In this document: one piece after another, positions 3,726 through 22,413 of the stretch
Numbering within the stretch: the stretch's first letter is position 1
How the letters are laid out: every line of letters begins with the position of its first letter
Assembly (NCBI GenBank): GCA_964638945.1
Contig: CAZXCC010000001.1
Location: forward strand, 47,945-111,944
Origin: an uncultured Veillonellaceae bacterium
GTDB lineage: Bacteria > Bacillota > Negativicutes > UBA1444
Direction of reading: 5' to 3'
Length of the DNA stretch: 64,000 nucleotides
Program-made: the position numbers and the translations under genes
Notes under the pieces: model-generated
What the model was told of the DNA's origin: nothing
The model's input: the letters and a program-made list of their open reading frames with translations, nothing else
Databases searched by the model: none

Positions 3726-3771
3726 TCGTGGGAAAACTGCCGGTACAATGAGTTGACAGGAGTGGATACGG

Positions 3772-4440
3772 GTGAAAGACAACAAGACTTCCCAATCAGC
3801 GGTGCTTTATGATGCCAATGTTCATAAAACAATTCCGCGGTACCATACTTTCCATGATGAGACGATTGAACTGATCCGAATTTTGAGACCGGCTCCGGCG
3901 GCATGGCTGGATACCGGCTGCGGTACAGGAACACTCATCGCAAAAGCAGCAGGTTGCTTTCCTGGAGTGAAATTTGTCGCAGCGGATCCGTCATCGGCGA
4001 TGCTGGAGCAGGCCAGGGAAAAGTTGGCCGGATTGGCGGTGGAATATGTGGAGGCCGGCACCGAGGCGTTTGCCGTGAAGAACAGATTTGATGTCATTAC
4101 TGCAATAATGTCGCACCACTACTTGAATTTCCCAGAGAGGGATACGGCAACGAAAAATTGCTTTGATGCACTGAACGAGGGGGGAGTGTATGTCACATTT
4201 GAAACCATACGGCCTTTTTCGGAACGCGGTACTGAAGTAGGGCTGCAAAGGTGGCGTACACATCAACTGTCAAACGGCAAAGCGCCTGAAGAAGTCGATA
4301 AGCATATCAGCCGTTATGGTATGGAATTATTGCCGATCTCGATTGATAATCATCTCGAATTGCTTCGCCGGGCAGGTTTTTCCACTGTGGAAATCTTGTG
4401 GGTATCTGGTTTACAGGCAGGGTTCTACGCTGTCAAATAG
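3772..4440 (+). CDS. class I SAM-dependent methyltransferase
   Basis: motif I LDTGCGTGTL; 222 aa. Confidence 0.7.
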   Translation: MKDNKTSQSAVLYDANVHKTIPRYHTFHDETIELIRILRPAPAAWLDTGCGTGTLIAKAAGCFPGVKFVAADPSSAMLEQAREKLAGLAVEYVEAGTEAFAVKNRFDVITAIMSHHYLNFPERDTATKNCFDALNEGGVYVTFETIRPFSERGTEVGLQRWRTHQLSNGKAPEEVDKHISRYGMELLPISIDNHLELLRRAGFSTVEILWVSGLQAGFYAVK

Positions 4441-4459
4441 CCGGAACGTGAGCGTGCTA

Positions 4460-4490
4460 TTGACAAAAAGACGGTACTCGTGATAATGTT
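4460..4490 (+). promoter_or_regulatory. possible sigma-A promoter (TTGACA, 16-17 nt, GATAAT with TG extension) followed by a GC hairpin at about 4510-4545
   Basis: pattern reading only. Confidence 0.3.
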
Positions 4491-4595
4491 CGAAATTATA
4501 ACAGTGGCAATGGAGCCGCCGCAAATGCGGTGGCTTTTGCTTTTTATTTTGCGAACCGATGGCGAAAATGTGCTGAGGGGAATTGTCTGATGCAT

Positions 4596-4611
4596 CGGCA
4601 CGATTCTTGCA
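4596..4611 (+). promoter_or_regulatory. sigma-54 (-24/-12) promoter CGGCACG-ATTC-TTGCA upstream of the soluble MCP-like gene
   Basis: GG at 4597-4598 and GC at 4609-4610 with canonical spacing; matches TGGCACG-N4-TTGCW except the first base. Confidence 0.6.
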
Positions 4612-4707
4612 ATAAATCTTGCTGAAACAAAATTTTGTAAAACGGCTACCGGAGATGGAGGCGATCTCCAATCTGGATTTTTTGAAAACAGGGGGGAAGT
4701 TGATACA

Positions 4708-5547
4708 ATGGCAACGTCGGAAGAAATTCTGGAAAGGTTGGTCCATGCACTACCGCTTATTCAGGGGGCTTTGCACGAAGATACAGGGGTTACTTTGACG
4801 AACCGGGAAAATTTTTTGTTCTACAAAGCAGGAAAAAATTTGGACCTAAAGGTTCCGCCCAATGCACAGGTAAAGCCGGGCAGCGGAGTGCACAGGGCCA
4901 TGCAGGAACGACGGCGCGTGGCGCTGCGCTTTGACAGCACGTTATATGGATTGCCTTACACATCTGTAGCGATTCCGGTTTATGATGAATCGCATGAAGT
5001 GATCGGAGCCATTGCCATTACTCAACCTGTGGAACTGCAGGAAAGCATCAAGCGGATGTCCGGCGGATTGTTGGACAATATCAGCGCTTTGGCTGCTACG
5101 AGCGAAGAGATTTCCGCCCAGACGGAAGAGATTGCGGCGTCCAGCCGTGTATTGACGGATATGGCGCATGAGTCACAAAAAAGAGCACAACAAACCGACC
5201 AAGTGTTGGGGTTGATTCGGAACATTGCCAGTCAGACAAATCTTTTGGGTTTGAATGCTGCTATTGAGGCAGCCCGTGTCGGGGAGCAAGGCCGCGGATT
5301 CGGCGTTGTTGCGGAGGAAATAAGAAAATTGGCTGGAACCAGCGCCCAGTCAATCAGCGAAGTGACTTCAATTATTGCAGCGATTCGTAAAGACAGCGAG
5401 GCCACTTACAGCCAGATGAATGAAATGCAGAGTGCAATCGGACAAATTGCCACTGCCGTTAGCCAAATTGCTGAAACAGTGCAAAAAATAACACAAAATG
5501 CATCGCAACTGGATAAGATTGCGGAAGCAATGAATGGGCAAGAATAG
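4708..5547 (+). CDS. soluble methyl-accepting chemotaxis protein-like transducer (no TM, no HAMP), N-terminal uncharacterised sensory domain shared with the sigma-54 activator; YfmS-like architecture
   Basis: MCP signalling core [34 protein letters not shown]; N-terminal about 110 aa alignable to 2127..3725 repeats and to 54187..55032. Confidence 0.8.
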
Positions 5548-5786: not shown

Positions 5787-5933
5787 TGTTTTGAAATGAA
5801 AATGATAAGTTGACCGCTGAAAATTGATGAAAAAATAAGTGGAATTCCAACCTTGCAATACAATCATACGGCGGACGAATGGCAATGAAGCCTGGCAAGA
5901 GATCTTGCGGGCTTTTTTGTTTGGAAGGCATAT

Positions 5934-5949
5934 TGGCACGGCTCTTGCA
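5934..5949 (+). promoter_or_regulatory. sigma-54 promoter TGGCACG-GCTC-TTGCA, near-perfect consensus, immediately upstream of the RBS/start of the first nicotinate cluster gene
   Basis: GG 5935-5936, GC 5947-5948; exact match to TGGCACG-N4-TTGCW. Confidence 0.75.
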
Positions 5950-5976
5950 TTGGTCTATAAAACGGAGGTGTGCACG

Positions 5977-6450
5977 TTGAATGTTGAAATAACTTGTAGG
6001 ATTAATGGCAAAGAAATTAACATGACGGTTCGGCCTGAAATGCTGTTGGTGGATTTCCTGCGTGATGAACTTGGTTTGACAGGAACGAAGAGAGGCTGCG
6101 GGATCGGTGAATGTGGCGCTTGCACGGTCATAATGGATGGACGCACAGTGGCATCTTGTATTGTTCCTGCCGCTTCGATCGACGGTTCGGATATTTTAAC
6201 GGTGGAAGGGCTGTCTGACGGAGAAAAACTCCATGTCCTTCAGCAGGCTTTCATCGACCATGGCGCAGTACAGTGCGGTTTTTGCACACCTGGGATGCTC
6301 TTGTCGGCAAAGGCTTTATTGGACAAAAATCCAAAACCGACACGGGAAGAGATCCGAGTGGCCATCTCTGGCAATGCATGCCGCTGTACAGGCTATACCA
6401 AAATTGTTGATGCGGTAGAATCAGTGGCAAAACTGGGAGGTGACGTTTGA
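5977..6450 (+). CDS. ndhS: nicotinate dehydrogenase (xanthine dehydrogenase family) 2Fe-2S small subunit
   Basis: two 2Fe-2S motifs CGIGECGAC and CGFCTPG; TTG start 8 nt after GGAGGTG; the ATG at 5839 would include the sigma-54 promoter and is judged less likely. Confidence 0.75.
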   Translation: MNVEITCRINGKEINMTVRPEMLLVDFLRDELGLTGTKRGCGIGECGACTVIMDGRTVASCIVPAASIDGSDILTVEGLSDGEKLHVLQQAFIDHGAVQCGFCTPGMLLSAKALLDKNPKPTREEIRVAISGNACRCTGYTKIVDAVESVAKLGGDV

Positions 6451-7721
6451 TGAACAATGCCGGCATTGGCAGTTCGGTTTTGAAGTCGGATGCGCTTGCC
6501 AAGGTGACGGGGCAGGCGTTATTCGCTGCTGACATGAAACGTCCGGGCATGTTGTTTTGCAAAGTGGTTCGCAACGAAAGCAAAATCGCGCATGCCGTGA
6601 TCGAAGGGATAGATGTGGCGGAAGCAGCGGCAACTCCTGGGGTTGTGGCAGTTTTTACGGCAAAAGACATTCCTGGAACGAACGGCGTCGGCATCATCCT
6701 GAAGGATGAACCGGTGCTCGCGGGGGAAAAAGTCCGTCGCCATGGCGACGCATTGGCTCTTGTCGTGGCTGAAACAGAAGAGATAGCAATTGCAGCAGGC
6801 AAGAAGGTTCGTGCCACATTGAAAGAACTGCCGGCGTATTTTGATCCCATAGCTGCGATGGCTCCTGACGCAGTCAAGATTCACGGATCATCCAATGTGC
6901 TGACCCTGCGCAAGGTTCGCAAGGGGGATGTAGAGGCGGCTTTTGCTGCTTCAAAGGTGATCATTGAAAGACGGTACACTACGCAGACGATTGAGCATGC
7001 CTATATAGAACCGGAAGCGGGATTGGCCGAATACGACGGCAGAATGGTGACGGTTTGGGTTTCAACGCAGAACGCACATTTTGACCGCAAAGAAGTGGCT
7101 CGCAACCTGGGGCTGGGAGTACATCAGGTTCGAATCGTTCAGGCTGTCACCGGCGGCGGGTTTGGCGGCAAACTTGATATTTCGGTGCAATGTTATCTGG
7201 CCCTGGCAGCTTACAAAACCGGGCGCCCGGTGAAAATGGTCTGGCAACGGGAAGAATCCATGATTGCATCAGCCAAGCGGCATCCGTACCTGATCGATTA
7301 CAAGACAGGCGCCGATGCGGACGGCAGGTTGCTGGCCGTGAAAGCAAATATCATTGGCGACTCAGGTGCCTACGCGTCTTATGGGCCGGCTGTGCTGACA
7401 AGGGCCGCGGTTCATGCTACCGGTCCCTATGAAGTGCCCAATGTCCATGTGGACGCATATGCCGTATACACAAATAACCCCCAGGCCGGAGCCATGCGTG
7501 GCTTTGGCGTGCCGCAGATGGCTTTTGCGCATGAGACGCAGATGGATCTTCTGGCGGAAGAACTGGGCCTCTCCCCCTTCGAAGTTCGCAGGAGGAATGT
7601 ATTGCGTCCGGGGGGGACGACTGCGACGGGCCAAGTGCTGGAACATAGTGTGGGCATCGGAATGACGCTGGAACAAGCCTGTAAGGAAGCAGAAAAATTG
7701 TTCCGCACGGGGGTACTGTAA
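6450..7721 (+). CDS. ndhL: nicotinate dehydrogenase molybdopterin subunit, N-terminal half (NdhL-like)
   Basis: aldehyde oxidase/xanthine dehydrogenase a/b hammerhead region; ATGA overlap with ndhS stop. Confidence 0.75.
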   Translation: MNNAGIGSSVLKSDALAKVTGQALFAADMKRPGMLFCKVVRNESKIAHAVIEGIDVAEAAATPGVVAVFTAKDIPGTNGVGIILKDEPVLAGEKVRRHGDALALVVAETEEIAIAAGKKVRATLKELPAYFDPIAAMAPDAVKIHGSSNVLTLRKVRKGDVEAAFAASKVIIERRYTTQTIEHAYIEPEAGLAEYDGRMVTVWVSTQNAHFDRKEVARNLGLGVHQVRIVQAVTGGGFGGKLDISVQCYLALAAYKTGRPVKMVWQREESMIASAKRHPYLIDYKTGADADGRLLAVKANIIGDSGAYASYGPAVLTRAAVHATGPYEVPNVHVDAYAVYTNNPQAGAMRGFGVPQMAFAHETQMDLLAEELGLSPFEVRRRNVLRPGGTTATGQVLEHSVGIGMTLEQACKEAEKLFRTGVL

Positions 7722-8774
7722 ATGAAGAAACGTGGTACAGGAATCGGTTGCATGTGGTATGGCATCGGCAATACGGGGCTTCCCAATCCGGCAGCGGCGT
7801 TTGTCGAATGGCTGGATGACGGGACGGCCAATTTGCTCGTCGGATGCGCGGATATAGGACAGGGATCGGATACCGCACTTGCCCAGATTGTGGCGGAAGA
7901 GCTCGGCATCAGTGCTGAAAACGTCATGGTCACCTCGGCTGACACGATGGTCACCCCTGAAGGCGGCGCTACAAGCGCCAGCCGACAGACTTACATTTCC
8001 GGCAACGCAGCACGCCTGGCGGCCAAGGAAGCCAAGCAGGTGGCGATTGCGGAAGCGAAAGAGATGTTGAAAACAACCGGCAATGTTGATTTTTCCCGTG
8101 GGTTCGTCTTGGTAGACGGAAAACCGGGAGAGCTTTCTGTGAAAGAAGTATTGGGCAGCTGTCGCATGAAGGGAAAACTCACGCTGGGACACGGGTGGTT
8201 CAATCCGGCGACAACAGGACTGGATACTGCCACGGGTGTAGGTTCGCCTTACGGAACATACGCTTTTGCCACGCAGGTGGCTGAAGTGGAAGTGGATACG
8301 GAAACCGGAAAAGTCGAAGTTCTTCGCCTCGTAGCTTCCCATGACGTTGGAAAGGCCATCAATCCCCAACTGGTCCAGGCGCAGATCGAGGGTGGCAGTG
8401 TCATGGGGGTCGGCTATGCCTTACTTGAGGAGATTAACGTTTCTGGCGGCCGCATTACAAATCCCAACTTTGATGCGTATCTTTTGCCCACTGCACTGGA
8501 TACGCCTGAGATTTATTCGTTTATCGTCGAAGATCACGAACCCACCGGCCCTTTCGGGGCGAAAGGCGTCGGGGAACCTGCTCTGATTCCAACTGCGGCG
8601 GCGATTGCCAATGCCGTGTACGACGCAATCGGTGTCAGAATCTATTCCCTGCCGATTTCTCCGGAACGGGTGCTCCAGGCGCTGGCAGAGAAAAAGAATG
8701 AGCAAAAGCCTGGCAACTGCAGTGGACCGGTATATGCGATTTGTTCAATCGGTGTGGAAGAAAGCAAGCCCTAA
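7722..8774 (+). CDS. ndhM: nicotinate dehydrogenase molybdopterin subunit, C-terminal half (NdhM-like)
   Basis: xanthine dehydrogenase family Mo-binding C-terminal region; clean TAA-ATG junction with GGGGGT RBS, mirroring the split 50+37 kDa L/M subunits of the E. barkeri enzyme. Confidence 0.75.
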   Translation: MKKRGTGIGCMWYGIGNTGLPNPAAAFVEWLDDGTANLLVGCADIGQGSDTALAQIVAEELGISAENVMVTSADTMVTPEGGATSASRQTYISGNAARLAAKEAKQVAIAEAKEMLKTTGNVDFSRGFVLVDGKPGELSVKEVLGSCRMKGKLTLGHGWFNPATTGLDTATGVGSPYGTYAFATQVAEVEVDTETGKVEVLRLVASHDVGKAINPQLVQAQIEGGSVMGVGYALLEEINVSGGRITNPNFDAYLLPTALDTPEIYSFIVEDHEPTGPFGAKGVGEPALIPTAAAIANAVYDAIGVRIYSLPISPERVLQALAEKKNEQKPGNCSGPVYAICSIGVEESKP

Positions 8775-8822
8775 TATCCGGGAGGCAGATTCCCGGCAAT
8801 CATGATAAGGAGAGTGACACAA

Positions 8823-9995
8823 ATGGCAAACCTAGTAATTACCAACATCGGCACAATTGTTTCAGGGGACATCGATTCTCCGATTCTCCAGGGTAACACC
8901 ATCGTTATCAAAGACGGAAAAATTGATGCCGTGGGAAATGCGGAACTGGTAGACGCTCTCAAAAAAGAATCGGTCGAATTCAAAACCATTGACGCAGGTG
9001 GTATGACAGTGACCCCGGGTCTGATTGATTCGCATGTTCATCCGGTCATCGGCGACTATACACCGAGGCAAAAGATGTCGGATTTTATCGACAGTTCCAT
9101 TCATGGAGGCGTGACTTCGATGATCTCCGCAGGGGAATGTCATACGCCGGGCCGTCCGACGGATCCGGCCGGTGTAAAAGCTCTGGCCATTCTGGCGAAA
9201 AAATCATTCGCAAATCTTAAGCCGGGCGGTGTGAAAGTTCATGCCGGCTCCGTGATTCTTGAAAAAGGGCTGACGGAAGCTGATTTTGCTGAGATGGCGG
9301 CAGCGGGTGTCAATATCGTCGGCGAGGTGGGCCTGGGTTCGGTAAAGAAGCCTGAAGATGCTGCGCCCATGGTGGCCTGGGCCAAGAAGCACAATATGAA
9401 AGTCATGATGCACACGGGCGGCACTTCGATTCCAGGTAGCTCCACAGTATCTGCAGATGACGTGATCAAAACGGACCCGGACGTAGTATCTCACATCAAT
9501 GGCGGCCCTACGGCGGTTTCATTGAAAGAGGTCGACAGGTTGCTTGACGAGACGCAGTTTGCATTGGAGATCGTACAGTGCGGCAACCCGAAAGTGGCTG
9601 ACTATGTGGCGCGCAAAGCGGCTGCCAAGAACCAGATGCATCGGATTATTTTCGGCAACGATGCTCCTTCCGGCACCGGCGTGATTCCTCTGGGGATTCT
9701 TCGAAACATCTGCCAGATTGCCAGCATATCTGAGATTCCTGCAGAAAAAGCCATTGCGATGGCTTCGGGAAACACTGCCCGTACTTATGGATTGAACACC
9801 GGAGTGATTGCGCCGGGAAAAGACGCGGATCTTGTGATTTTGGACACACCGATGGGCTCGGTCGGCAAGAATGCGCTGGAAGCGATTGAAGCCGGAGATT
9901 TGCCTGGAGTCGCGTTGGTACTTGTTGATGGAGTGATCAAGGTAAACAAGAGCCGCAATACTCCGCCGACAGTGGGAAAAGTAACGGGTGCCTAA
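8823..9995 (+). CDS. ena: enamidase-like amidohydrolase (1,4,5,6-tetrahydro-6-oxonicotinate amidohydrolase)
   Basis: amidohydrolase metal motif GLIDSHVHP; 390 aa, matching the about 386-aa E. barkeri enamidase; cluster context. Confidence 0.7.
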   Translation: MANLVITNIGTIVSGDIDSPILQGNTIVIKDGKIDAVGNAELVDALKKESVEFKTIDAGGMTVTPGLIDSHVHPVIGDYTPRQKMSDFIDSSIHGGVTSMISAGECHTPGRPTDPAGVKALAILAKKSFANLKPGGVKVHAGSVILEKGLTEADFAEMAAAGVNIVGEVGLGSVKKPEDAAPMVAWAKKHNMKVMMHTGGTSIPGSSTVSADDVIKTDPDVVSHINGGPTAVSLKEVDRLLDETQFALEIVQCGNPKVADYVARKAAAKNQMHRIIFGNDAPSGTGVIPLGILRNICQIASISEIPAEKAIAMASGNTARTYGLNTGVIAPGKDADLVILDTPMGSVGKNALEAIEAGDLPGVALVLVDGVIKVNKSRNTPPTVGKVTGA

Positions 9996-10016
9996 GGAAA
10001 CGGGAGGTTTGGAACA

Positions 10017-11525
10017 ATGATCATTGTCAAGAAGGAACTCTGCAAGGCCTGCGGCTTATGTGTCAAGAACTGTCCGGCAAGCGCGGTCAAAGTCATAGAC
10101 AAATTGGCCGTGGTGCAGGAGAATTGCGTCAGTTGCGGCGTCTGCGTCCGTGTCTGCCCTTTTCAGGCAATCATGCGCGAAGTGGAAATTGCTGCAGGCG
10201 CAGTTTCTTGCCGTTCATGCCCGGTCCAATGCGAAATCAAGGCAGGGTTTGAAGGTGCATGCAAACGCTATAGCAACATCAACGGAAAATTGGTGCGAAA
10301 CCGTGAACTGGTACTGGAAAATACCCGGTCTCAGGTGCCGGACCGGACAATCCCGGATAAGCCTCTGATTACTGCCGTAGGTGCGGGTACAGAGTATCCC
10401 TGCTGCCGTCCGGCCCCTCATATTGTCGGTGAGACGATCGACGGCATCGATGTGGTGACCGTAGTGACGGAAGCTCCGCTCAGTTACAGCGGTATCAAGG
10501 TAAAGATTGACGCCAACCGCCACATCGGCGAAGAAGGCGCGAAGATATTCAGGGACGGTGCGCTCGTCGGCATGGTGGACACCGAAGAGTATGGATCAAA
10601 GATGATTTACATCGGCGGAGCGAATATTCTGAGCGGGAAGAATGGATTTGCCGCGGCCCGGACCATTGTCGAACTGGCGAATGAAGAACGAGTGACACTG
10701 CAGGTCGAAAAAGGAAGCAAGCTGGAACTGCAGGTCGGTCACGCACCAATCATTGACGGTGTTGCCGAAAAGAAAATGCGTGTTGGTTGCGGCAGTGCAA
10801 CCGTCGGTATGTTTGCACGTATCATGAGTCAGGCAGTGGATGAAGCCATCGTGCTGGACCATCATGTTATTGGACTTCTGTCGGAACACCGGGCGGGTGA
10901 AGAGGTTGGAATGCGCTGGAGCGGCGTTGTTCCAAACGGCAGAAAAAGTACAAGGGGTAGATATTTCGGGGAGCATGGGCATGGTTGGGGCGGCACTCAT
11001 ATCGAAAAGCCTCTGGATGCAGTCAAGTCTGTAGATATGAGCATCGCCAGACAGGGCATGAAAATATTGGTTACCGAAACTACCGGGCAAAAAGGCGCAT
11101 TGCTGGAAGTGCAAGCGGATGGCAGTGTGCGCGAGATTCCGATGACTCCGGATGCTCAGGCCGCTGTCAACATGATTGTCGACAATTGTGAGGAAGCCAG
11201 GGTATCTGCCGTTTATGTCGGCGGAACCGGCGGCAGTGCGAGAGCAGGCGTGACGACCTATCCCATCAAGCTTTCACGCGCCGTGCATGCAGGGGAAGCA
11301 AAGTTGACAATCGGCGGGGCCATGGCCTACATCCTTCCGGGAGGCGGCATAAATTTTCTGGTGGATGTGGAAAAAGTGGAACCGAAGGCTTTTACCTGGG
11401 TTCCGACTCCTGCAACAGTAGCGCCGGTTGAATATACGATGACCCGCCGCAAATATGAAGAAATCGGTGGACATGTCGAGTCCATCAAACCCCTCTCCAC
11501 GCTCAAAAAGGCGAACAAAAAATGA
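10017..11525 (+). CDS. hnr: 6-hydroxynicotinate reductase-like protein with N-terminal 2x[4Fe-4S] ferredoxin domain
   Basis: CKACGLCVKNCP and CVSCGVCVRVCP motifs plus additional Cys clusters; position and size consistent with Hnr of the E. barkeri pathway. Confidence 0.6.
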   Translation: MIIVKKELCKACGLCVKNCPASAVKVIDKLAVVQENCVSCGVCVRVCPFQAIMREVEIAAGAVSCRSCPVQCEIKAGFEGACKRYSNINGKLVRNRELVLENTRSQVPDRTIPDKPLITAVGAGTEYPCCRPAPHIVGETIDGIDVVTVVTEAPLSYSGIKVKIDANRHIGEEGAKIFRDGALVGMVDTEEYGSKMIYIGGANILSGKNGFAAARTIVELANEERVTLQVEKGSKLELQVGHAPIIDGVAEKKMRVGCGSATVGMFARIMSQAVDEAIVLDHHVIGLLSEHRAGEEVGMRWSGVVPNGRKSTRGRYFGEHGHGWGGTHIEKPLDAVKSVDMSIARQGMKILVTETTGQKGALLEVQADGSVREIPMTPDAQAAVNMIVDNCEEARVSAVYVGGTGGSARAGVTTYPIKLSRAVHAGEAKLTIGGAMAYILPGGGINFLVDVEKVEPKAFTWVPTPATVAPVEYTMTRRKYEEIGGHVESIKPLSTLKKANKK

Positions 11526-12355
11526 TCAGGGAATTGGGGCCGGGCAAGGTTGCGCTTGATTTTGGTCCTACCCAGATGAATATTCATGTTTCCGGCGACA
11601 ATGCCGGTACCGGCATTGCGAAAGAAGCAGCGGATTACGCAATAAAGCTGGTTACGGAACTGGCGGGTTTTAAAACGATTGCAGCCAGGCCGCAAAGCGA
11701 AATCGGCACGCTGGAGGATCTGCCTGTCGTGCTCCAGAGAATGATCGAGTCTGTCAGAAAAACCGGGGATACGGATCTGACCCCCATGGCTGCAGTTGCC
11801 GGAACTCTATCGGACATGACTGCAGACTGGCTTTTTGCCAGAGGCGTCTCGAAGGTTATCGTCAACAATGGCGGCGATATTGCGATAAGACTCTCGGGAG
11901 AACAACGAGCCACGGTTGGCATTGCACCGGCCTTGGGCATGCCGCCGACCCACGTTCTGCATATCGGTGCAGCCGATGGCATCGGCGGTGTGACAACAAG
12001 CGGTTCAGGCGGACGAAGTTTCACCAAAGGAATTGCCACCGCCGCCACCGTTGCGGCAAAAACGGCGTCGATAGCCGACGCCTGCGCCACAAGCATCGGC
12101 AACGCAACCTTTTCTCCCCATCCATCCATCCGCATGGCTAGAGCGGAAGAAATCGATCCATTGACTGACATCGCAGGGCACTGGGTGGTTCGGGACGTGG
12201 GAGAACTGCCGCAGGAAACGGTTCAGGCAGCTCTTGAAAACGGATGGATGAGGGCAAAAAGCTATTTGGACAGAGGGATCATCAAAGGATGCGTTATCTT
12301 TATCGGACAAGCTGGAGTGGTGCTGCCGGAAGGGCTAGTGACTCCCTTGCCGTAA
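11522..12355 (+). CDS. conserved hypothetical protein, Gly/Ala-rich, in nicotinate cluster (possible Hnr accessory)
   Basis: ORF 277 aa translationally coupled (ATGA) to hnr; no motif recognised. Confidence 0.45.
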   Translation: MIRELGPGKVALDFGPTQMNIHVSGDNAGTGIAKEAADYAIKLVTELAGFKTIAARPQSEIGTLEDLPVVLQRMIESVRKTGDTDLTPMAAVAGTLSDMTADWLFARGVSKVIVNNGGDIAIRLSGEQRATVGIAPALGMPPTHVLHIGAADGIGGVTTSGSGGRSFTKGIATAATVAAKTASIADACATSIGNATFSPHPSIRMARAEEIDPLTDIAGHWVVRDVGELPQETVQAALENGWMRAKSYLDRGIIKGCVIFIGQAGVVLPEGLVTPLP

Positions 12356-12376
12356 AAATTAAGAGGAGGGTATATT

Positions 12377-12961
12377 ATGGAACTGGAAATTCGTAAGATT
12401 GTAACTGTTGTGGAAGAAACCTGCAAGGAAGCCGGACGCAAACTGGAAAAACCGACGCGCAAAGCTGCGGCGATGGCTGTTGTTGCCAATCCGTATGCGG
12501 GGCAATATGTGGAAGACCTGAATCCGCTGATTGATGCCTGCCTGCCGCTCGGAGAGCTCTTGACCAAACGTGCAGTGGAAGCATTGGGCATTGCGCCTGA
12601 AAAAGTAGAAAGCTATGGCAAGGCGGCTATCGTAGGCATAAATGGCGAACTGGAGCATGCCGCGGCGCTGCTGCATCCCAAACTCGGGACACCGATCCGC
12701 GATAATGTCGGCGGAGGAAAGGCAATTCTGCCTTCAACCAAAAAAGTCGGTGGACCAGGAACGGCGATCGATGTATCACTCGGATTCAAAAACGCCGCAT
12801 ACGTGCGGACTCACTTCGATGCAATGGAAGTACGGATTGCCGATGCTCCACGGGACAATGAAATTGTCCTTATCGTTGCTGTGACTGATTCGGGCCGTCC
12901 GCTGGCGCGTGTGGGCGGATTGACTGTGGATCAGGTCAAAGGCGAAGACGGATTGCGCTAA
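12377..12961 (+). CDS. amino-acid-synthesis (AA_synth/DUF1185) family protein, function unknown
   Basis: N-terminal MELEIRKIVTVVEE... and length about 190 aa typical of that family (from memory). Confidence 0.5.
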   Translation: MELEIRKIVTVVEETCKEAGRKLEKPTRKAAAMAVVANPYAGQYVEDLNPLIDACLPLGELLTKRAVEALGIAPEKVESYGKAAIVGINGELEHAAALLHPKLGTPIRDNVGGGKAILPSTKKVGGPGTAIDVSLGFKNAAYVRTHFDAMEVRIADAPRDNEIVLIVAVTDSGRPLARVGGLTVDQVKGEDGLR

Positions 12962-12974
12962 ACAAAAAATATAG

Positions 12975-13007
12975 TTGCTAGAACAAGGAAATTCCTTGTT
13001 CTAGCAA
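12975..13007. other. perfect 15-bp stem / 3-nt loop hairpin (TTGCTAGAACAAGGA aat TCCTTGTTCTAGCAA) between cluster genes; U-run lies on the minus-strand side
   Basis: base pairing verified by eye, 15/15 pairs. Confidence 0.6.
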
Positions 13008-13024
13008 AATTGGGGGGAAGAAAG

Positions 13025-13912
13025 GTGCGTATCGGATTTATCGGTATCGGAGCCATGGGAAAACCGATGGCGCTGAACCTTCTAAAGGCTGGCCATGAAC
13101 TGTATGTTTTTGATGTCGTGGCAGCTGCGGTGGCAGACATGGTTGCTCAGGGGGGGCAGGCATGCACGTCGCCCAAAGAGCTTGCGCAGAAGACGGAAGC
13201 AGTTATTACAATGCTGCCCAATGCCAAGATTGTGGAAAGTACACTGACAGGTGAAAACGGGCTTTTAGCCGGCTCACGTCCCGGACAGGTTTTCATCGAC
13301 ATGAGCAGTGTCTCCGCTGGCAGTACGAAACTGATGGCCAAACTCGCCGGTGAAAAAGGGGTCGGCTATGTGGATGCACCGGTAAGCGGCGGGGTGGCTG
13401 GCGCTACGGCTGGAACACTGACCATCATGGTTGGGGGAAGTGTGGATGACGTTGCGAAAGTACAACCCATACTGCAGGCTATGGGGAAAAACATCCACCA
13501 TGTCGGAGAAGTGGGTGCGGGTGATTCCATCAAGGTCGTCAACAATCTGCTGCTCGGGATCAATATGGCAGCGGTTGCTGAAGCGTTGGTGCTCGGAGTG
13601 AAATCCGGCCTGTCGCCCCAGGTCATGCTTGATATCATCAAGGGGAGCTCCGGCCGAAGTTATGCGTTGGAGGCGAAGACTCCGGGCTTTATCCTGAAAA
13701 ATAATTTTGCAGCCGGATTTGCCATCGACCTGCAGTACAAGGATCTGGAACTGGCGGCCGAAACGGCAAAAAGTCTGGGAATGCCGCTTCCGCTGGGATC
13801 CATGGCGCAACAGATTTTTGAAATGGCCAGGGCCAAGGGACTGGGGCGCGAGGATATTTCAGCAGTGATCAAGGTGTGGGAAGAACTGGTCGGCGTGCAA
13901 GTGAGGGAATAG
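13025..13912 (+). CDS. hgd: 2-(hydroxymethyl)glutarate dehydrogenase-like (3-hydroxyisobutyrate dehydrogenase family, NAD-binding)
   Basis: GFIGIGAMGKPMALNL Rossmann motif; about 296 aa; cluster context. Confidence 0.75.
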   Translation: MRIGFIGIGAMGKPMALNLLKAGHELYVFDVVAAAVADMVAQGGQACTSPKELAQKTEAVITMLPNAKIVESTLTGENGLLAGSRPGQVFIDMSSVSAGSTKLMAKLAGEKGVGYVDAPVSGGVAGATAGTLTIMVGGSVDDVAKVQPILQAMGKNIHHVGEVGAGDSIKVVNNLLLGINMAAVAEALVLGVKSGLSPQVMLDIIKGSSGRSYALEAKTPGFILKNNFAAGFAIDLQYKDLELAAETAKSLGMPLPLGSMAQQIFEMARAKGLGREDISAVIKVWEELVGVQVRE

Positions 13913-13919
13913 AAGGTAG

Positions 13920-15344
13920 GTGCAGGGGATGGAGAAGATATATAAGGAATTAAAAGAAAAGAATTTGTTGCCGGGCCAGCTGACTATCGGTGACTGTATT
14001 GGTGTGGCCAAAACAGTCGGAACGAGTGTTGGTGAAGTGATCATTGCCGAAGCGATGGAAGTCGGCAAAATGACCCGGCAGGAAGTGCTGTCGGCCGTGA
14101 TGGCAAGTTTTTCTCACAATCTGTATGCGATAGAAATCGGTACAACAACTGGTTCCAGCTTTCTGATGGGCAACGCGGGGCGGGAACTGACACAGGGAGC
14201 TGCCCCGCAGATTGTGGAAGATACTTTCCTGAACAAGGTGCTGGGATTTACGATTGGGGCACAGGTGGGAAACCATTCGGTCGGTTTGCAGCCTTGCGCC
14301 GGAACTGGCGATTCCTGTACGTATTCGGGTTTTGTCAAAGCCATGTTGGAAGAGGTGGCCGATCAGGAGCTGATTGCCCGTGTTGCGGCTGTCATGCTGA
14401 AAATCGGTACGATATTTCGCGTGGGTAAAACATCAACCGGCTGTAATATGGAAGGATTTGGTGCAGGTTCCGCTGCTTCTGCGGCAGCGTTCATCGAACT
14501 AGCCGGCGGTACACCGGAACAGATGGAGAAGGCCATTGTCCTGGCCTTGTCACCAACGATCGCGGTTCCTTGTACCCCCAGGGTCATGGTGGCCGGAATT
14601 TGCGCCACGCATATCGGCGGTGGCGTAATGATCGGCAAACTGGCGGCGCAGCTTGCGATGCATACCTCCATCCCCATCACCGTTCCTGCAGATGTGATGA
14701 TCGCCATGGCGGCAGCCGTTCATCCGATATCCGCCAAACATGTGGTTCCCACAGTGATTCAGTACATGGAGCCTTTTTTCAAAACCAACCTGGCGGTAGA
14801 AGGCTATATTTCTCCGGAAATAAAGGCGGAGGAAAAGGAGCGGATCGATCAGACTATTGGTCATGCTCTTGCTGAAGCCCGAGAACTGGCCCGCAAATCC
14901 AACCCGATCGTCAAACCGTTCAGTGAGGCGGTTGTAGGCGGAAGCAGCCAAGCTGTCGGTTCCCCGACGAACGCGGCCCGGATTGCGCATTTCCTTGCCA
15001 AAGGCGAAGTGAAGAAAGTCAAAATCGAGCTGTATCCCGAATTATTTGCCAGACGCGGCATCAATGTGCCGGGCATCCTGATGGCGGCAATTTACGGCGC
15101 AGGGACGGATAACAGCAAACTGTATCGTGAAGTCATGGACAAAGTGAAGGCTGCGGGAATCGAAGTGGAAATCCTGCAGGCCAGCGAATCTCAGATGCAG
15201 CGGATTACCGTCGAAGCCAGTGAAAAGAACGGGATGGTGCAGACTCTCAATCGTGGCGGAGCCCGCCTGGTTCTGCAAAAAGCATCCGATTTGGCAGAAG
15301 CATTCCGGATTGCCAAGGACCTTGGCATTGAAACGGTCGAGTAG
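13920..15344 (+). CDS. hmd: 2-(hydroxymethyl)glutarate dehydratase-like (Fe-S L-serine dehydratase family, fused beta+alpha)
   Basis: serine dehydratase-like single-chain architecture 474 aa; cluster context. Confidence 0.7.
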   Translation: MQGMEKIYKELKEKNLLPGQLTIGDCIGVAKTVGTSVGEVIIAEAMEVGKMTRQEVLSAVMASFSHNLYAIEIGTTTGSSFLMGNAGRELTQGAAPQIVEDTFLNKVLGFTIGAQVGNHSVGLQPCAGTGDSCTYSGFVKAMLEEVADQELIARVAAVMLKIGTIFRVGKTSTGCNMEGFGAGSAASAAAFIELAGGTPEQMEKAIVLALSPTIAVPCTPRVMVAGICATHIGGGVMIGKLAAQLAMHTSIPITVPADVMIAMAAAVHPISAKHVVPTVIQYMEPFFKTNLAVEGYISPEIKAEEKERIDQTIGHALAEARELARKSNPIVKPFSEAVVGGSSQAVGSPTNAARIAHFLAKGEVKKVKIELYPELFARRGINVPGILMAAIYGAGTDNSKLYREVMDKVKAAGIEVEILQASESQMQRITVEASEKNGMVQTLNRGGARLVLQKASDLAEAFRIAKDLGIETVE

Positions 15345-15355
15345 GAGGAACGGTC

Positions 15356-16564
15356 GTGAATTTTATAGAAAAATATCTGGCTGCTGCGGCCGGTCTTGAA
15401 AAGGTAAGTGTAGGGCAAGATTTGCGCTGCCGGGTGGATCTGGCACTCAGCCATGACGTTACTGCGCCGATAGCCATTCAACAATTCGAACAGATTGGCA
15501 TCGACCATGTGTTTGATCCAGCCAAAGTGGTCCTGGTCATCGACCACATCTTTCCCGCATCGACCGTCCAGGCCCGGACTTCACATTGGATCATGAAAGA
15601 TTTTGCAGCAAAATTCGGTGTCACACTGTATAGCAAAGGGGAAGGCGTCTGCCACCAGCTCCTGTCGGAGCGGCATCGTTTGCAACCGGGGCAGATTCTG
15701 GTGGGGGCAGACTCACACACTTGTACAGCCGGCGGTTACGGCGTGATCGGAATCCCTGTCGGATCGACGGAACTGGCTGCTGCGATGGCGACCGGTACAA
15801 TCGACCTGGAAGTTCCACCTGTGGTCGAAGTCTTCATGACTGGCGCCCTGAATCCCGGCGTAAGCGGCAAGGACATCGTTCTGAGCCTGATCAAGCGTTT
15901 CGGCGTCGATGGGCTTACAGACAAGGCGGTTGTTTTTACTGGCCCGGGAATTACAGGAATTTCTACAGGGGAACGGATGACGATCTGTAATATGGGAATC
16001 GAGATGGGCGCAATGATTGCCTGCTTTGGAGAGGAAACCAAAGCGGAGGATGTTGCGGAAAGCATTCCGCTGGAGCTGGAAAAACTGGTTCCGCTTGCGG
16101 CCTGTCCGCATTCACCAGCCAATGTTCGCCCGGTTTCCGACCTGAAGGACGTATCGGTAACCCAGGTGGTGGTCGGCAGTTGTACGAACGGGAGACTGAA
16201 CGACATGGAAAAAGTAGTCGATGTGCTCAGAAACCATAAAGTTCATCCCGATGTAAACTGTCTGATAATCCCCGCATCGAAAAACATACTGGATGCGATG
16301 GAAGAACAAGGCTGGTGCAAAATTTTGCGCGATGCCGGCGCTGTGGTGGCAAATCCCGGTTGTGGCCCGTGTTTTGGCGCTCATCAGGGATTGGGCACGG
16401 AACGCGACGTGATCGTATCCACCACGAATCGTAATTTCCCAGGACGAATGGGGCACCGGACCGCGAATATCTATCTTGCTTCACCCGCTACGGCAGCTGC
16501 ATCGGCGGTGACCGGGAAAATTACCGAACCAGGTTCGCTGGCAGCCGGAGGTGATTTGAAATGA
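15356..16564 (+). CDS. dmdA: dimethylmaleate hydratase large subunit (aconitase/LeuC family)
   Basis: GADSHTCTAGG aconitase-family motif; GTG start after GGAGG. Confidence 0.75.
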   Translation: MNFIEKYLAAAAGLEKVSVGQDLRCRVDLALSHDVTAPIAIQQFEQIGIDHVFDPAKVVLVIDHIFPASTVQARTSHWIMKDFAAKFGVTLYSKGEGVCHQLLSERHRLQPGQILVGADSHTCTAGGYGVIGIPVGSTELAAAMATGTIDLEVPPVVEVFMTGALNPGVSGKDIVLSLIKRFGVDGLTDKAVVFTGPGITGISTGERMTICNMGIEMGAMIACFGEETKAEDVAESIPLELEKLVPLAACPHSPANVRPVSDLKDVSVTQVVVGSCTNGRLNDMEKVVDVLRNHKVHPDVNCLIIPASKNILDAMEEQGWCKILRDAGAVVANPGCGPCFGAHQGLGTERDVIVSTTNRNFPGRMGHRTANIYLASPATAAASAVTGKITEPGSLAAGGDLK

Positions 16565-17055
16565 AGACAATCAAGGGTCGTGTATGGGTTTTTGACGACA
16601 ATGTGGATACCGATCAGATACTGCCTGGCTATGCAATGGCCGAGGCTGCAGCTTCCCTGGGACGTTTTGCCATGGCTGGCAGCAAGATTCCGGATTTCTC
16701 CGGCAAGGTTCAAGCCGGTGACATTATTGTCGCAGGCAAAAACTTCGGCTGCGGTTCCAGTCGGGAGCAGGCGCCGGTTGCGCTGAAACTGGCAGGAGTC
16801 AGTCTGCTCATTGCTCCCTCTTTTGCCCGGATTTTTCGCCGGAATTCCATCAATATCGGATTGCCGGTGATGTTGGGAGATATTCGGGAGGAAGTCAAAA
16901 CAGGAGATATTATCGAAGTGGATATTGAAAGCGGCGTTATTGTCGCTGCGGAGAGAAAACTGTCAGCTCAACCTCTGGCGCCCAATGTGCTGGCAACGGT
17001 GCGGGCCGGCGGCCTGATCAACCGTGTCCGCCAAGAACTGGGTATTGCAAACTGA
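16561..17055 (+). CDS. dmdB: dimethylmaleate hydratase small subunit (LeuD-like)
   Basis: 164 aa LeuD-like swivel domain; ATGA overlap with dmdA. Confidence 0.75.
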
Positions 17056-17080
17056 ACGATATACTGCAGGAGGAACCAAA

Positions 17081-18928
17081 ATGCAAGAAAAAACCATGCG
17101 GATTATTACCGAGGACTATGACAGAGTAAAAGCATATTCGGAAACCTTTGCCGTTCCCATGCCGACCCTGGGCAAGGATGGATCGGTGGATGGTCTGCCG
17201 GCTCCATATCCGCGGGAAGTCTGCGGTGTCCAGCGCAGCGGCTACCGGATTTATGAACTGGCACAACAAGCTGAAAAAACAGGGATTCCTGTGCAGAATC
17301 CGATACTTGGGCGCAATACGGCGGAAGAAACCTATAAAGAATCGGTTGAAATGTATAATATGGCCGAAAAACTGGGCATCAAAATATTCCATTTTGTGCA
17401 CTCGGAAGCTACGCGCCATATCGATCCCTTGAACGGACGAGAACTGATCGAACAGTCGCGCGGCAAGGGCGGCATTACGCCGATGGGTGAACGAAAACTG
17501 GTGGAACTGGGCGGAGGCTCGATTCATCCGATGCGGATCAATGCAACAGGGGATACTCCGCATCTTTCGATCATCAACGCCCTGCTGGCCGGATTTGACG
17601 GAACGGACATCGGACCGGTCATTCATGTGCACTTCGGCGGCCGAGGCATCCATGACTACAAGACCAAAGTGGTAAACGGATTCCGCGCCTTGGAAATTTG
17701 TGCCGAGCACAATATGTTCGTGCAAATTGAGTCGCACAAGCACTTGAATAATATCGGCGGAACGGATGGGATGGCTCTGGCCATGTGTCTGCTGGCAGAA
17801 GGCTTGGGCGTTCTTGCCGGTCTGCCTCCGGAACTGAGCGCAGTGCAGATGAATGTGACAGGATTGAACTTGCTCGGAGATCTCGCATCAATGCGTGCCT
17901 TCAAGGAAACCATGTGGAGCAAGAGCCTGATCGTAGTGCCGGAAACCTTCCAGAATCCTCCGGGCGACCTGATTGCTGAATCGGCGCACTTTGCCCGGAT
18001 GGCGATTAGTGCAAAGCTTGGAGGCGCCCACTTCTACCGTCCGAAAGCAGCCGAGTCCGTGGGAATTCCCACTGGCGGCTCCATGGCAAAAGCGATCTGG
18101 GGAACACAAAACGTGTTCGAAAACACGGTGAAAGTGGAAATCCACGATCCGTACATCGAAGTCCGGAAAAATGAAATTCTTGATGAAGCCATGGCGGTGC
18201 TGGAAGGCGTTCTGGGCATCGGCCGTACGCTGGCGCCTGATGAAATCAACGAGAAATTCTGGCGCAAATATGACAAGGATGAACTGAGTGAAAAAATTGT
18301 CACTGCAGGCAAAGCCGGAATAATGGACTGCCCGCGCGCCGGCGGCTGGGATTTGAAACGCCATGTGCGAACGCACCGTGACAAAGACGGTATCAAACGA
18401 TATGTTCCGGGTTTCACTCCGTTGGGCGTGGATTCCGCACGTATGGCGATCACGACGGAACCGGTGGAAGTGCCGGAAGTGAAAAAACCTACCCGCAAGC
18501 AAAAAATGGTGCTGGCGACAGTTGGCGCCGATGCTCACGTCATGGGAATCAACATGATCAAGGAAGCTTTCGAAAAAGCCGGCTACGAGGTGATTTACCT
18601 CCGCGGCATGAACCTGCCGGAAACAGTGGCGGAAGTAGCGGCTGAAGCCAAGGCCGAGATTATTGGCATTACGAACCTTCTCGGGATGGGCCGCGAATTG
18701 TTCCCGAGGGTGCAGAAACGTCTGCAGGAACTGGGGATGAGCGATAAGGTCCTGCTCATCGCTGGGGGCCGGATTGCCGAAAAAGAAGAAGAACATGCCT
18801 ATTTTGAAGAAAAAATCGCCAAAGAAGGTCCGACTTTCCTCGGAGTGGAGAATTTCTTCGGGCCGGGCACCGATCCGGTCAAATGTGTCGAGTGGACCGC
18901 AAAAGCACTTGAAAGGAAGGGTCTGTAA
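17081..18928 (+). CDS. mgm: 2-methyleneglutarate mutase (adenosylcobalamin-dependent)
   Basis: C-terminal B12-binding domain with [12 protein letters not shown] (DxHxxG) motif; 615 aa, same as the E. barkeri enzyme; GGAGG RBS. Confidence 0.8.
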
Positions 18929-20061
18929 TGGGAGATATGCGTCGAATTCCCTGTGTAATTTTGCGTGGCGGCACAAGCAAAGGGATATATCTGAAATCCA
19001 ACCATCTGCCTCAGGATAAAGAAGCGCGGGACAAAGTCATTCTGGAGATTTTTGGCAGTCCGGATGTCCGACAGATTGACGGATTGGCCGGCGCCGACCC
19101 ATTGACAAGCAAAGTGGCAATCATTGGGCCGTCCACTCATCCCGGAGCCGATGTGGACTATACCTTTGGCCAGGTCAGCATCAACGCACCCTATATTGAC
19201 TATTCCGGAAACTGCGGCAATATTTCGTCGGGGGTGGGGCCGTTTGCAATCGACGAAGGTTTTGTCGCTGCGACCGGTTCCATGACCACAGTTCGGATTC
19301 ACAACACCAATACGGGAAAAATTCTGATTGCCGAAGTTCCGACGGAAGACGGTCTCGCAAAAGTAAACGGCGACTGCAAGATCGACGGAGTACCCGGTAC
19401 CGGCGCCCAAATCATGATGGACTTTTCCGGCACGGCGGGTTCGGTGACAAACAAACTGCTGCCGACAGGCAATCCTGTTGATACCATCAACACCAGCGCC
19501 GGCCCTTTGCAAATTTCGATCGTGGATGTGTCCAATCCCTGCGTGTTTGTCAGAGCAAAAGATGTGGGCATGAAAGGCGGCGAGACGCCCCAGGAAGTCA
19601 ACGGGAATCCGAAATTGCTGGGTCTCATGGAGGAAATCCGTGCCCAGGCCTGCGTGATGATCGGCATGGCGCCGGATGTGGCTACCGCCACAGCCAAGAG
19701 CCCGGCATTCCCAATGGTGGCCTATGTGTCCCCTGCGGCGGATTATGTTGATTTCACCACAGGCAAGACCATCAGCAAAGATCAGATCGATTTCATTTCC
19801 CGCATGATGTTCATGCAGGTGCTGCACAAAACCTACCCGGGAACCGGCACGGCATGTACCGGCGCAGCGGCGAAAATTCCGGGAACAATTGTCAACGAAG
19901 CAATCCCGCATATTGACTCCATCAAGATTATCCGCATCGGGCATCCGGCAGGAGTGATCGAGATTGAGGCCGCTTTTGAAAAAGGCGAGTTGTCAAGGGC
20001 TGCGTTTGCCCGAACGGCAAGGCGCATTATGGAAGGGTACGTCTACGTCAGAAATTCGTGA
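18928..20061 (+). CDS. mii: 3-methylitaconate delta-isomerase (PrpF family)
   Basis: PrpF-like N-terminus IPCVILRGGTSKG; 377 aa; TAATG overlap with mgm. Confidence 0.75.
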   Translation: MGDMRRIPCVILRGGTSKGIYLKSNHLPQDKEARDKVILEIFGSPDVRQIDGLAGADPLTSKVAIIGPSTHPGADVDYTFGQVSINAPYIDYSGNCGNISSGVGPFAIDEGFVAATGSMTTVRIHNTNTGKILIAEVPTEDGLAKVNGDCKIDGVPGTGAQIMMDFSGTAGSVTNKLLPTGNPVDTINTSAGPLQISIVDVSNPCVFVRAKDVGMKGGETPQEVNGNPKLLGLMEEIRAQACVMIGMAPDVATATAKSPAFPMVAYVSPAADYVDFTTGKTISKDQIDFISRMMFMQVLHKTYPGTGTACTGAAAKIPGTIVNEAIPHIDSIKIIRIGHPAGVIEIEAAFEKGELSRAAFARTARRIMEGYVYVRNS

Positions 20062-20083
20062 TTCATACGGGGAGTGAAAAGAC

Positions 20084-21520: not shown

Positions 21521-21521
21521 C

Positions 21522-22394: not shown

Positions 22395-22413
22395 CCCTGG
22401 AAGGAGGCTGCAT

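Follow-up and report, generated by a model that had tools for sequence, protein, structure and literature searches.

The 64,000-nucleotide stretch of DNA analysed here (the window: contig CAZXCC010000001.1, positions 47,945 to 111,944, from an uncultured Veillonellaceae bacterium) carries on its + strand, from 5839 to 23295, a complete nicotinate fermentation cluster of the Eubacterium barkeri type. Within it, two genes that we call ORF-A and ORF-B (ORF, open reading frame) lie between hnr, the gene for 6-hydroxynicotinate reductase (10017..11525), and hgd, the gene for 2-(hydroxymethyl)glutarate dehydrogenase (13010..13912). Both had previously been noted as conserved unknowns of nicotinate clusters (PMC3511419). 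The cluster runs in the order ndhS, ndhL, ndhM, ena, hnr, ORF-A, ORF-B, hgd, hmd, dmdA, dmdB, mgm, mii, a GlmL-like gene, dml and ndhF, so that ndhFSLM, ena, hnr, hgd, hmd, mgm, mii, dmdAB and dml were all found. These assignments rest on Pfam and NCBIfam matches, on the names used by database sources (which call the hnr homologues "6-hydroxynicotinate reductase") and on synteny with the Negativicutes species Anaeroselena agilis, the closest named genome, where the cluster has an identical gene order. Two neighbours will matter below: the enamidase gene ena (8802..9995, + strand; Amidohydro_1/3 match), whose presence tracks the clade to which ORF-B belongs, and hgd itself (+ strand; NAD_binding_2/11, HIBADH family), whose product would act just after the step that we propose for ORF-B. 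An initial annotation made from the sequence alone had placed two unassigned genes, for proteins of 277 and 194 amino acids, at this point of an otherwise assigned pathway operon, and in this it was exact.

ORF-A (11522..12355, + strand, 277 amino acids) begins inside hnr: read directly from the sequence, the tetranucleotide ATGA at 11522..11525 (+ strand) holds both the hnr stop and the ORF-A start, which makes the two genes translationally coupled, as had been claimed. ORF-B (12377..12961, + strand, 194 amino acids) has its own strong Shine-Dalgarno sequence, GAGGAGG (12363..12369, + strand), 7 nucleotides 5' of its ATG. Both are real genes and not chance ORFs, because ORF-A has 2166 homologues in the database (best match 100% identity, E 4e-175) and ORF-B matches its Pfam family over its full length and has at least 8000 homologues. 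The description of ORF-A as Gly/Ala-rich is true only mildly, since Gly and Ala make up 25.3% of the protein and already 21.4% of the rest of the cluster. Both genes are conserved parts of the "upper" module of the pathway, which leads from nicotinate through 6-hydroxynicotinate and tetrahydro-6-oxonicotinate (THON) to 2-formylglutarate.

How tightly is ORF-A linked to hnr in other genomes? A scan with an alignment of four Hnr sequences, keeping one genome per species, gave 80 loci in Firmicutes, Desulfobacterota and Alphaproteobacteria, and adjacency was counted at the 76 loci with at least 900 bp of sequence downstream of hnr. An ORF-A homologue lies immediately 3' of hnr on the same strand at 72 of these 76 loci, or at 73 when a match found only by tblastn (L080) is included. 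The 4-base overlap between the two genes (a distance of -3) recurs across many lineages, and the pair is kept where the dehydrogenase genes differ in type or face the opposite way, or where the enamidase gene lies elsewhere or has been replaced. The linkage between hnr and ORF-A is near-obligate and translationally coupled. Homologues of ORF-B, which belong to the AA_synth family, are present in 67 of 82 loci; co-occurrence with hnr, suggested at the outset as a check, is strong for both genes, and a general absence from other nicotinate clusters is clearly not seen for either. On plasmids, ORF-A-like genes are rare (13 records), and those inspected adjoin hnr or a transposon scar. In the Hydrogenophaga plasmid pBPS33-1 (L086), for example, a UPF0280 gene directly follows an IS1071 transposase gene within a duplicated cassette of Rieske-oxygenase and TctC genes; this record has four matching places and looks like the remnant of a disrupted hnr cluster.

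By family, ORF-A is a cytoplasmic, hnr-dedicated member of the COG2122/UPF0280 branch of the ApbE superfamily. The Pfam label precomputed for its homologues is PF27030 ("AbpE_bact"), and PGAP names the alphaproteobacterial orthologues, which adjoin a "6-hydroxynicotinate reductase", "UPF0280 family protein". Against the Pfam ApbE model itself (PF02424) ORF-A passes marginally, with 30.6 bits over residues 35-182 for a cutoff of 25.6. Its single solved sequence relative is DVU1097 (PDB 2o34, E 1.6e-9), a similarity that holds in both sequence and structure. An AlphaFold model built with 60 homologues as input (pLDDT 95.2) has the two T-fold-like halves and the helical insert of the ApbE fold, and its only significant Foldseek matches are DVU1097 and genuine flavin mononucleotide transferases (ApbE/Ftp/FmnB). 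The N-terminus, MIRELGPGKVALDFGPTQ, has no hydrophobic signal and so bears no lipoprotein or extracytoplasmic signature.

Four motifs, all encoded on the + strand, stand out when conservation is computed over 73 ORF-A orthologues. TPMAAVAG (residues 87-94, 11780..11803) is family-invariant and common to the COG2122 proteins of the DVU1097 type. VNNGGDIA (residues 114-121, 11861..11884), with the invariant core VNNGGD (residues 114-119), is the counterpart of the GGD strand of ApbE. G-x-x-T-S-G-x-x-G-R-S-x-x-x-G-x-A (residues 156-172, 11987..12037) places S160 on the ApbE "TSG" serine, and in A-D-A-x-A-T-x-x-x-N (residues 185-194, 12074..12103) D186 and T190 correspond to the Asp and Thr at the Mg/pyrophosphate site. 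This correspondence comes from a profile alignment to E. coli Ftp made with hhalign (prob 91%, E 1e-6), where S160 falls on TSG and D186/T190 on ADAWDT; S160, D186 and T190 are invariant in 73/73 orthologues. The roles of these active-site residues in ApbE have been described for the Vibrio cholerae enzyme (Ser241, Asp285, a Mg-site Thr and the general base His257; PMC12052999). Judged from these aligned residues, ORF-A retains a conserved site of the nucleotide-Mg type. In addition, the hnr-linked subfamily has about 33 extra residues (~197-229, 12110..12208, + strand) that are specific to it and, in the alignment, not present in DVU1097-type COG2122 proteins. This insertion is a candidate Hnr-recognition element.

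The presumed client, Hnr, has an N-terminal domain for two [4Fe-4S] clusters and a cluster site at Cys65/68/72/82. No solved structural relative was found for its catalytic part, and comparison therefore does not point to the place of the flavin. Alhapel and colleagues reportedly described in 2006 that the E. barkeri enzyme holds a covalently bound flavin. We know of no flavin-attachment enzyme assigned to Hnr, and no enzymes other than those of the ApbE type are known to us to transfer flavins to proteins. Some Hnr homologues (P0246 and P0247, of about 970-980 amino acids) are fused to a GltD/NfnB-like module of Fer4_20 and Pyr_redox_2 domains, which suggests that these variants draw electrons from NAD(P)H and not from ferredoxin. 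None of the Hnr fusions inspected joins it to ORF-A or ORF-B, and the 755-residue Hnr-like protein P0373 has no ORF-A-like part.

We consider it likely that ORF-A is a partner or maturation factor specific to Hnr. The initial annotation had offered both genes as candidate partners or assembly factors of the reductase; this fits ORF-A because of its ApbE flavin-transferase fold, at the strength allowed by a protein that lacks the catalytic His and a client that lacks the target motif (both below), whereas for ORF-B the data point to the enamidase and Hgd instead. As to what ORF-A does, we tentatively favour flavin transfer. ORF-A would be produced in step with Hnr through translational coupling and would mature it: its Ser/Asp/Thr nucleotide-Mg2+ site would bind flavin adenine dinucleotide, and the protein would install, or help to install, the covalent flavin of Hnr at a non-canonical site. 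There are ApbEs in the cytosol that act in this way on soluble reductases (PMC12052999).

Several observations weigh against flavin transfer. ORF-A is about 50-70 residues shorter than ApbE/Ftp/FmnB (PF02424), shares only 13-18% sequence identity with them and lacks a lipoprotein signal. ORF-A has a deletion where ApbE has the loop with its general-base His ("HxxDPxTG"; His257 in V. cholerae), and the aligned K169 is variable. The canonical target motif D-x-x-[ST]-G-A-[ST] occurs in 0 of 82 Hnr sequences and in none of the Ena, Ndh or other cluster proteins of these loci, which leaves a classical ApbE mechanism without support. Cys258 of Hnr is nearly invariant, and Cys- or His-linked covalent flavins usually form autocatalytically. 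At three loci (L022, L033 and L050) hnr has no adjacent ORF-A. A loss of conserved Ser, Thr or Cys residues was sought in the Hnr of these three and none was seen, all invariant residues being kept, so the missing adjacent gene is uninformative there. Finally, the best-studied COG2122 relatives, DvMF_0044 and MA1715, are reported to act in sulfide-dependent homocysteine synthesis, and COG2122 has been called "distantly related to ApbE" and said to lack its flavin-binding region, with a persulfide role proposed (PMC5764234).

This last point leads to the strongest alternative, in which ORF-A does for Hnr what COG2122 does for the DUF39/NIL-ferredoxin homocysteine system, that is, something other than flavin transfer. 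It might deliver or activate sulfur or an adenylated intermediate, or it might be an accessory or redox-coupling partner of a reductase with ferredoxin domains. The COG2122/UPF0280/DUF375 proteins (DVU1097, PDB 2o34; DvMF_0044; MA1715) have all four motifs in common with the hnr-linked subfamily, and genetic work has shown that the trio of COG2122, DUF39 and NIL-ferredoxin converts aspartate semialdehyde and sulfide into homocysteine, with a COG2122/DUF39 cofitness of 0.98 (PMC5764234). We scanned metagenomes with the DVU1097 sequence and obtained 61 loci (L089-L149), in which a NIL-ferredoxin gene precedes the UPF0280 gene at 28 of 52 loci and an HcyBio/DUF39 gene does so at 20 loci; a gene for a CstA-family transporter follows in 9 loci of this set. 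The two groups nevertheless differ. Their partner genes are HcyBio and NIL-ferredoxin in one case and hnr in the other. COG2122 proteins have a His in the G(H/R)S motif where the ORF-A subfamily has Arg, and ORF-A scores under the cutoffs of the NCBIfam UPF0280/PRK04334 equivalogs (194.8 bits for the best, NF003322, whose cutoff is 290; 71-81 bits for three others). Where the DVU-type proteins have a conserved Cys before TSSG, the hnr-linked subfamily has Ala or Thr, which argues against persulfide chemistry; since the subfamily has no conserved Cys anywhere, we disfavour ORF-A as a persulfide carrier. A possible relation of the Hnr catalytic domain to a diverged DUF39/HcyBio, raised by a "VDVVT" look-alike, was rejected (hhalign prob 0.3%), and Hnr thus has no detectable DUF39 homology; its reaction is a plain two-electron C=C reduction without sulfur chemistry. 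We judge a COG2122-like role to be rather unlikely.

Less probable still, and indeed improbable, is that ORF-A belongs permanently to the reductase, as a structural or regulatory subunit, and is not a maturation enzyme. Strict adjacency and translational coupling do suggest stoichiometric co-production, and the subfamily-specific insertion could be an interface. However, the purified E. barkeri Hnr is said to consist of a single type of polypeptide, and ORF-A diverges far more quickly than Hnr (at rank 120 of the match lists, identity is 46% for ORF-A and 64% for Hnr), yet its catalytic-looking Ser/Asp/Thr/GGD site stays invariant.

ORF-B is a member of the DUF1185/AA_synth family, as the initial annotation had proposed: it matches PF06684 end to end (E 1.3e-75, 253 bits for a cutoff of 27, residues 5-180 on model positions 1-175). 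Among solved proteins it matches SPO0826 (PDB 2qtp) with E 2.5e-75 and about 65% identity as read from the alignment, and BB2672 (PDB 3byq) with E 7e-37. It equals these proteins in length, has the same His/Glu/Arg cluster and falls in the SPO0826 clade; ORF-B is an orthologue of SPO0826, so that a crystal structure of an orthologue is at hand (PMC2954203). Both solved proteins are hexamers (trimers of dimers) in solution, and BB2672 has a conserved cluster of His93/98/144/174, Glu90/92 and Arg172/176 in a cavity at the hexamer interface (PMC2954203). In 96 family members, R6, N38-P39, K82, E91, E93, H94, H100, R108, R144, H146, D156, E162, R174 and R178 of ORF-B are invariant. The residues of the BB2672-type cluster are found here too, E91, E93, H94, H100, H146, R174 and R178 being at least 95% conserved in the same set; R174 and R178 align to Arg172/176, and the position aligned to His174 is outside the lists of positions with at least 85% conservation. 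Such a constellation of Arg, His, Glu and Lys fits what is typical of a carboxylate-binding enzyme. ORF-B evolves slowly, with about 70% identity at rank 120, above both Hnr and ORF-A. Because ABC-transporter genes lie nearby, the structural paper guessed that the family transports or metabolises branched-chain amino acids, or is linked to these processes (PMC2954203), and PGAP names the alphaproteobacterial orthologues "amino acid synthesis family protein", whereas the context of ORF-B is nicotinate catabolism. The ABC transporters near genes of the SPO0826/BB2672 type are probably the substrate importers of nicotinate clusters (PMC3511419).

The AA_synth tree separates three groups. The first, which we call B-hi, holds ORF-B, all copies from Firmicutes and Desulfobacterota, SPO0826 and the second gene of the alphaproteobacterial tandems; the second, B-lo, holds the first gene of those tandems and is sister to BB2672. 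TgnF-like proteins are the third, an outgroup at about 40-45% identity. A B-hi gene is present in 50 of the 50 ena-containing loci that have any AA_synth gene. In some Alphaproteobacteria (L040, L058, L075, L077, L078, L088) the hydantoinase/oxoprolinase-type genes hyuA-hyuB stand in place of ena, and the two are exclusive (57 loci with ena only, 5 with hyuAB only, none with both). Loci of the hyuAB kind had only B-lo, in 4 of 4 cases, and B-hi was not found there; the association of B-hi with ena and of B-lo with hyuAB has a Fisher p of 3e-6, without correction for phylogeny. These hyuAB loci imply an alternative ring opening of THON, which is probably ATP-dependent. Gene order adds to the picture: copies parted from hnr-orfA come directly after ena (9 cases) or stand between ena and hgd, B-hi follows ena and B-lo follows hnr-orfA at L043 and L069, the order ena-orfB-hgd occurs in a Firmicutes metagenome-assembled genome (L152), and two Desulfobacterota orthologues of ORF-B also lie within nicotinate clusters, where the gene can open the operon, far from hnr. 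In the alphaproteobacterial clusters (L035-L081, L083, L087) there are usually two AA_synth genes in tandem, often overlapping, B-lo then B-hi, after hnr-orfA. This pair may form a hetero-oligomer, or the extra copy may supply the decarboxylation of an aerobic route.

Enamidase opens THON to 2-(aminomethylene)glutarate, and (S)-2-formylglutarate and ammonia must then be formed from it. We lean, with some reserve, towards placing ORF-B at this junction between Ena and Hgd. There it would speed or steer the conversion of the 2-(aminomethylene)glutarate enamine, or of its imine, to (S)-2-formylglutarate; alternatively, it would present the labile 2-formylglutarate aldehyde to the next enzyme, Hgd. 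The initial annotation had proposed the handling of THON, and the data for ORF-B favour the enamidase/Hgd step over it.

Two analogues shape this proposal. TgnF, from the trigonelline pathway of Acinetobacter baylyi, is of the same Pfam family, and its gene stands in a pyridine-carboxylate operon beside those for a ring-product hydrolase and an aldehyde dehydrogenase; in contrast to ORF-B it belongs to the outgroup clade, and its pathway and substrate differ. TgnF is cited as stimulating the TgnE-dependent oxidation of succinate semialdehyde (PMC7913881, citing Perchat et al. 2018). By analogy, trigonelline hydrolase would release 2-(methylaminomethylene)succinate and, from it, 2-formylsuccinate, and a small acid-base enzyme, be it an enamine/imine tautomerase or hydrolase or a presenter of alpha-formyl acids, would fit both the nicotinate and the trigonelline contexts. 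AA_synth genes occur in 389 plasmid records. On plasmids of Leisingera (L084) and Rhizobium phaseoli (L085), a GntR gene adjoins a conserved operon whose genes stand in the order AA_synth, alpha/beta hydrolase, flavin reductase, LLM-class oxidoreductase and aldehyde dehydrogenase; operons of this type match the described trigonelline (tgn) gene set, recur on rhizobial and roseobacter plasmids and are widespread on the rhizobial ones. The other analogue is RidA/YjgF, with which the job proposed for ORF-B shares its kind of chemistry, an enamine or imine quenched to a carbonyl. The SCOP fold class of DUF1185 also includes YjgF/RidA.

A role of ORF-B at the enamidase/Hgd junction has its own difficulties. 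The resemblance to RidA may be taken at the fold level only, as an analogy and not as membership: the sole Pfam match of ORF-B is AA_synth, with none to Ribonuc_L-PSP, and DUF1185 proteins are hexamers with extra strands where RidA/YjgF proteins are trimers (PMC2954203). A DUF1185 homologue from a coumarin operon, whose pathway has neither an enamine nor an aldehyde, was without measurable effect (PMC7913881). ORF-B also follows hnr-orfA more often than ena, the upstream gene being ORF-A for 45, another AA_synth gene for 17, ena for 9 and hnr for 5 of 90 AA_synth copies. Moreover, enamidase is described as a bifunctional enzyme, sufficient for both steps.

The gene order just mentioned speaks for the idea that ORF-B serves the reductase step, either by tautomerising the primary product to THON or by stabilising or channelling THON. 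Half of the copies (45/90) sit directly after hnr-orfA, the module of hnr, orfA and AA_synth persists where hyuAB replaces ena, and in the coumarin operon a DUF1185 gene adjoins that of an ene-reductase for an unsaturated lactone (PMC7913881). Yet the copy that accompanies hnr-orfA in the hyuAB loci is B-lo and not of the clade of ORF-B; where the two clades are split, at L043 and L069, it is B-hi that goes with ena; and the Desulfobacterota orthologue far from hnr does not suit such a role. We hold the reductase step to be an unlikely place for ORF-B. A 2-formylglutarate decarboxylase yielding glutarate semialdehyde is very unlikely here: the aerobic Azorhizobium route reportedly needs this decarboxylation (Kitts and colleagues, 1992), and the trigonelline route needs an analogous step, in which, as far as the cited account goes, a DUF1185 protein boosts downstream aldehyde oxidation (PMC7913881), but the window has every gene of the fermentative route (hgd, hmd, mgm, mii, dmdAB, dml), which keeps all six carbons, so that a decarboxylase would drain the pathway. 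Such a role is easier to reconcile with the alphaproteobacterial B-lo and TgnF clades.

Other features of the window concern the control and layout of the operon. At the boundary between the genes of the upper and the lower pathway, inside the 48-nucleotide gap between ORF-B and hgd, lies a 15-bp perfect inverted repeat (12975..13007) with the arms TTGCTAGAACAAGGA and TCCTTGTTCTAGCAA. Its RNA would fold with a free energy of -28.1 kcal/mol (z -7.2). A T-tract is lacking on the + strand, and the repeat is terminator-like on the - strand, where there is no evident gene; it may split the upper- and lower-pathway transcripts, stabilise the mRNA or be the binding site of a regulator. Upstream (5') of the nicotinate operon, at 2127-5547, are predicted genes for a sigma-54 activator, a methyltransferase and a soluble 279-residue protein with an MCP signalling domain (4708-5547) and no obvious membrane segments, an arrangement seen by synteny with Anaeroselena agilis. 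The MCP-domain protein is possibly a dedicated regulatory or chemosensory input to the nicotinate operon. The gene for the FAD subunit, ndhF (22339-23295), is the last gene of the cluster, beyond dml; in most other loci it adjoins ndhS.

Taken together, our best explanation of the locus, which we put forward tentatively, is that ORF-A matures Hnr, the favoured chemistry being attachment of a covalent flavin, and that ORF-B acts at the hand-over from enamidase to Hgd. That these genes exist, which families they belong to and that they co-occur with hnr was known before. What appears to be new is the quantified linkage between hnr and ORF-A, the standing of ORF-A as a Cys-less, insertion-bearing sister of the COG2122 proteins of the homocysteine pathway, the division of the AA_synth genes into two clades with an ena-specific distribution of ORF-B's clade, and the chemistry shared with trigonelline operons. 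A literature search on UPF0280 gave no papers, and nicotinate is mentioned in none of the 15 top-ranked results on ApbE, nicotinate and flavinylation; within this scope, no published flavin-transfer proposal for the hnr-linked UPF0280 protein was found.

One may go further and envision, as a speculation that we ourselves regard as unlikely, that COG2122/UPF0280 is a second, cytoplasmic class of ApbE-derived cofactor transferases that mature ferredoxin-dependent reductases at non-canonical sites. The hnr-linked members would then attach the covalent flavin of Hnr, and the DUF39-linked members would do an equivalent job in sulfide-dependent homocysteine synthesis. In the same scheme DUF1185 would be a new enzyme family acting on the 2-(aminomethylene)- and 2-formyl-dicarboxylates that arise from the opening of pyridine rings, with the enamidase-linked clade as a deaminase or tautomerase and the TgnF and B-lo clades as decarboxylases.

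Three questions meet at this locus: the route by which Hnr is flavinylated, the molecular job of COG2122/UPF0280 and the function of DUF1185. COG2122/UPF0280 is genetically essential for the alternative homocysteine pathway of sulfate reducers and methanogens, and DUF1185, with crystal structures since 2010, recurs in operons for pyridine-ring degradation. The nicotinate system has a defined client, defined intermediates and published assays, so that our hypotheses can be tested with a few recombinant proteins. Should they fail, both genes would remain ordinary conserved genes of a known pathway. If, on the other hand, ORF-A is a flavin transferase, enzymatic flavinylation would extend past the canonical ApbE motif, and if the cofactor-transferase reading of COG2122 is true, it would resolve the molecular role of that family.

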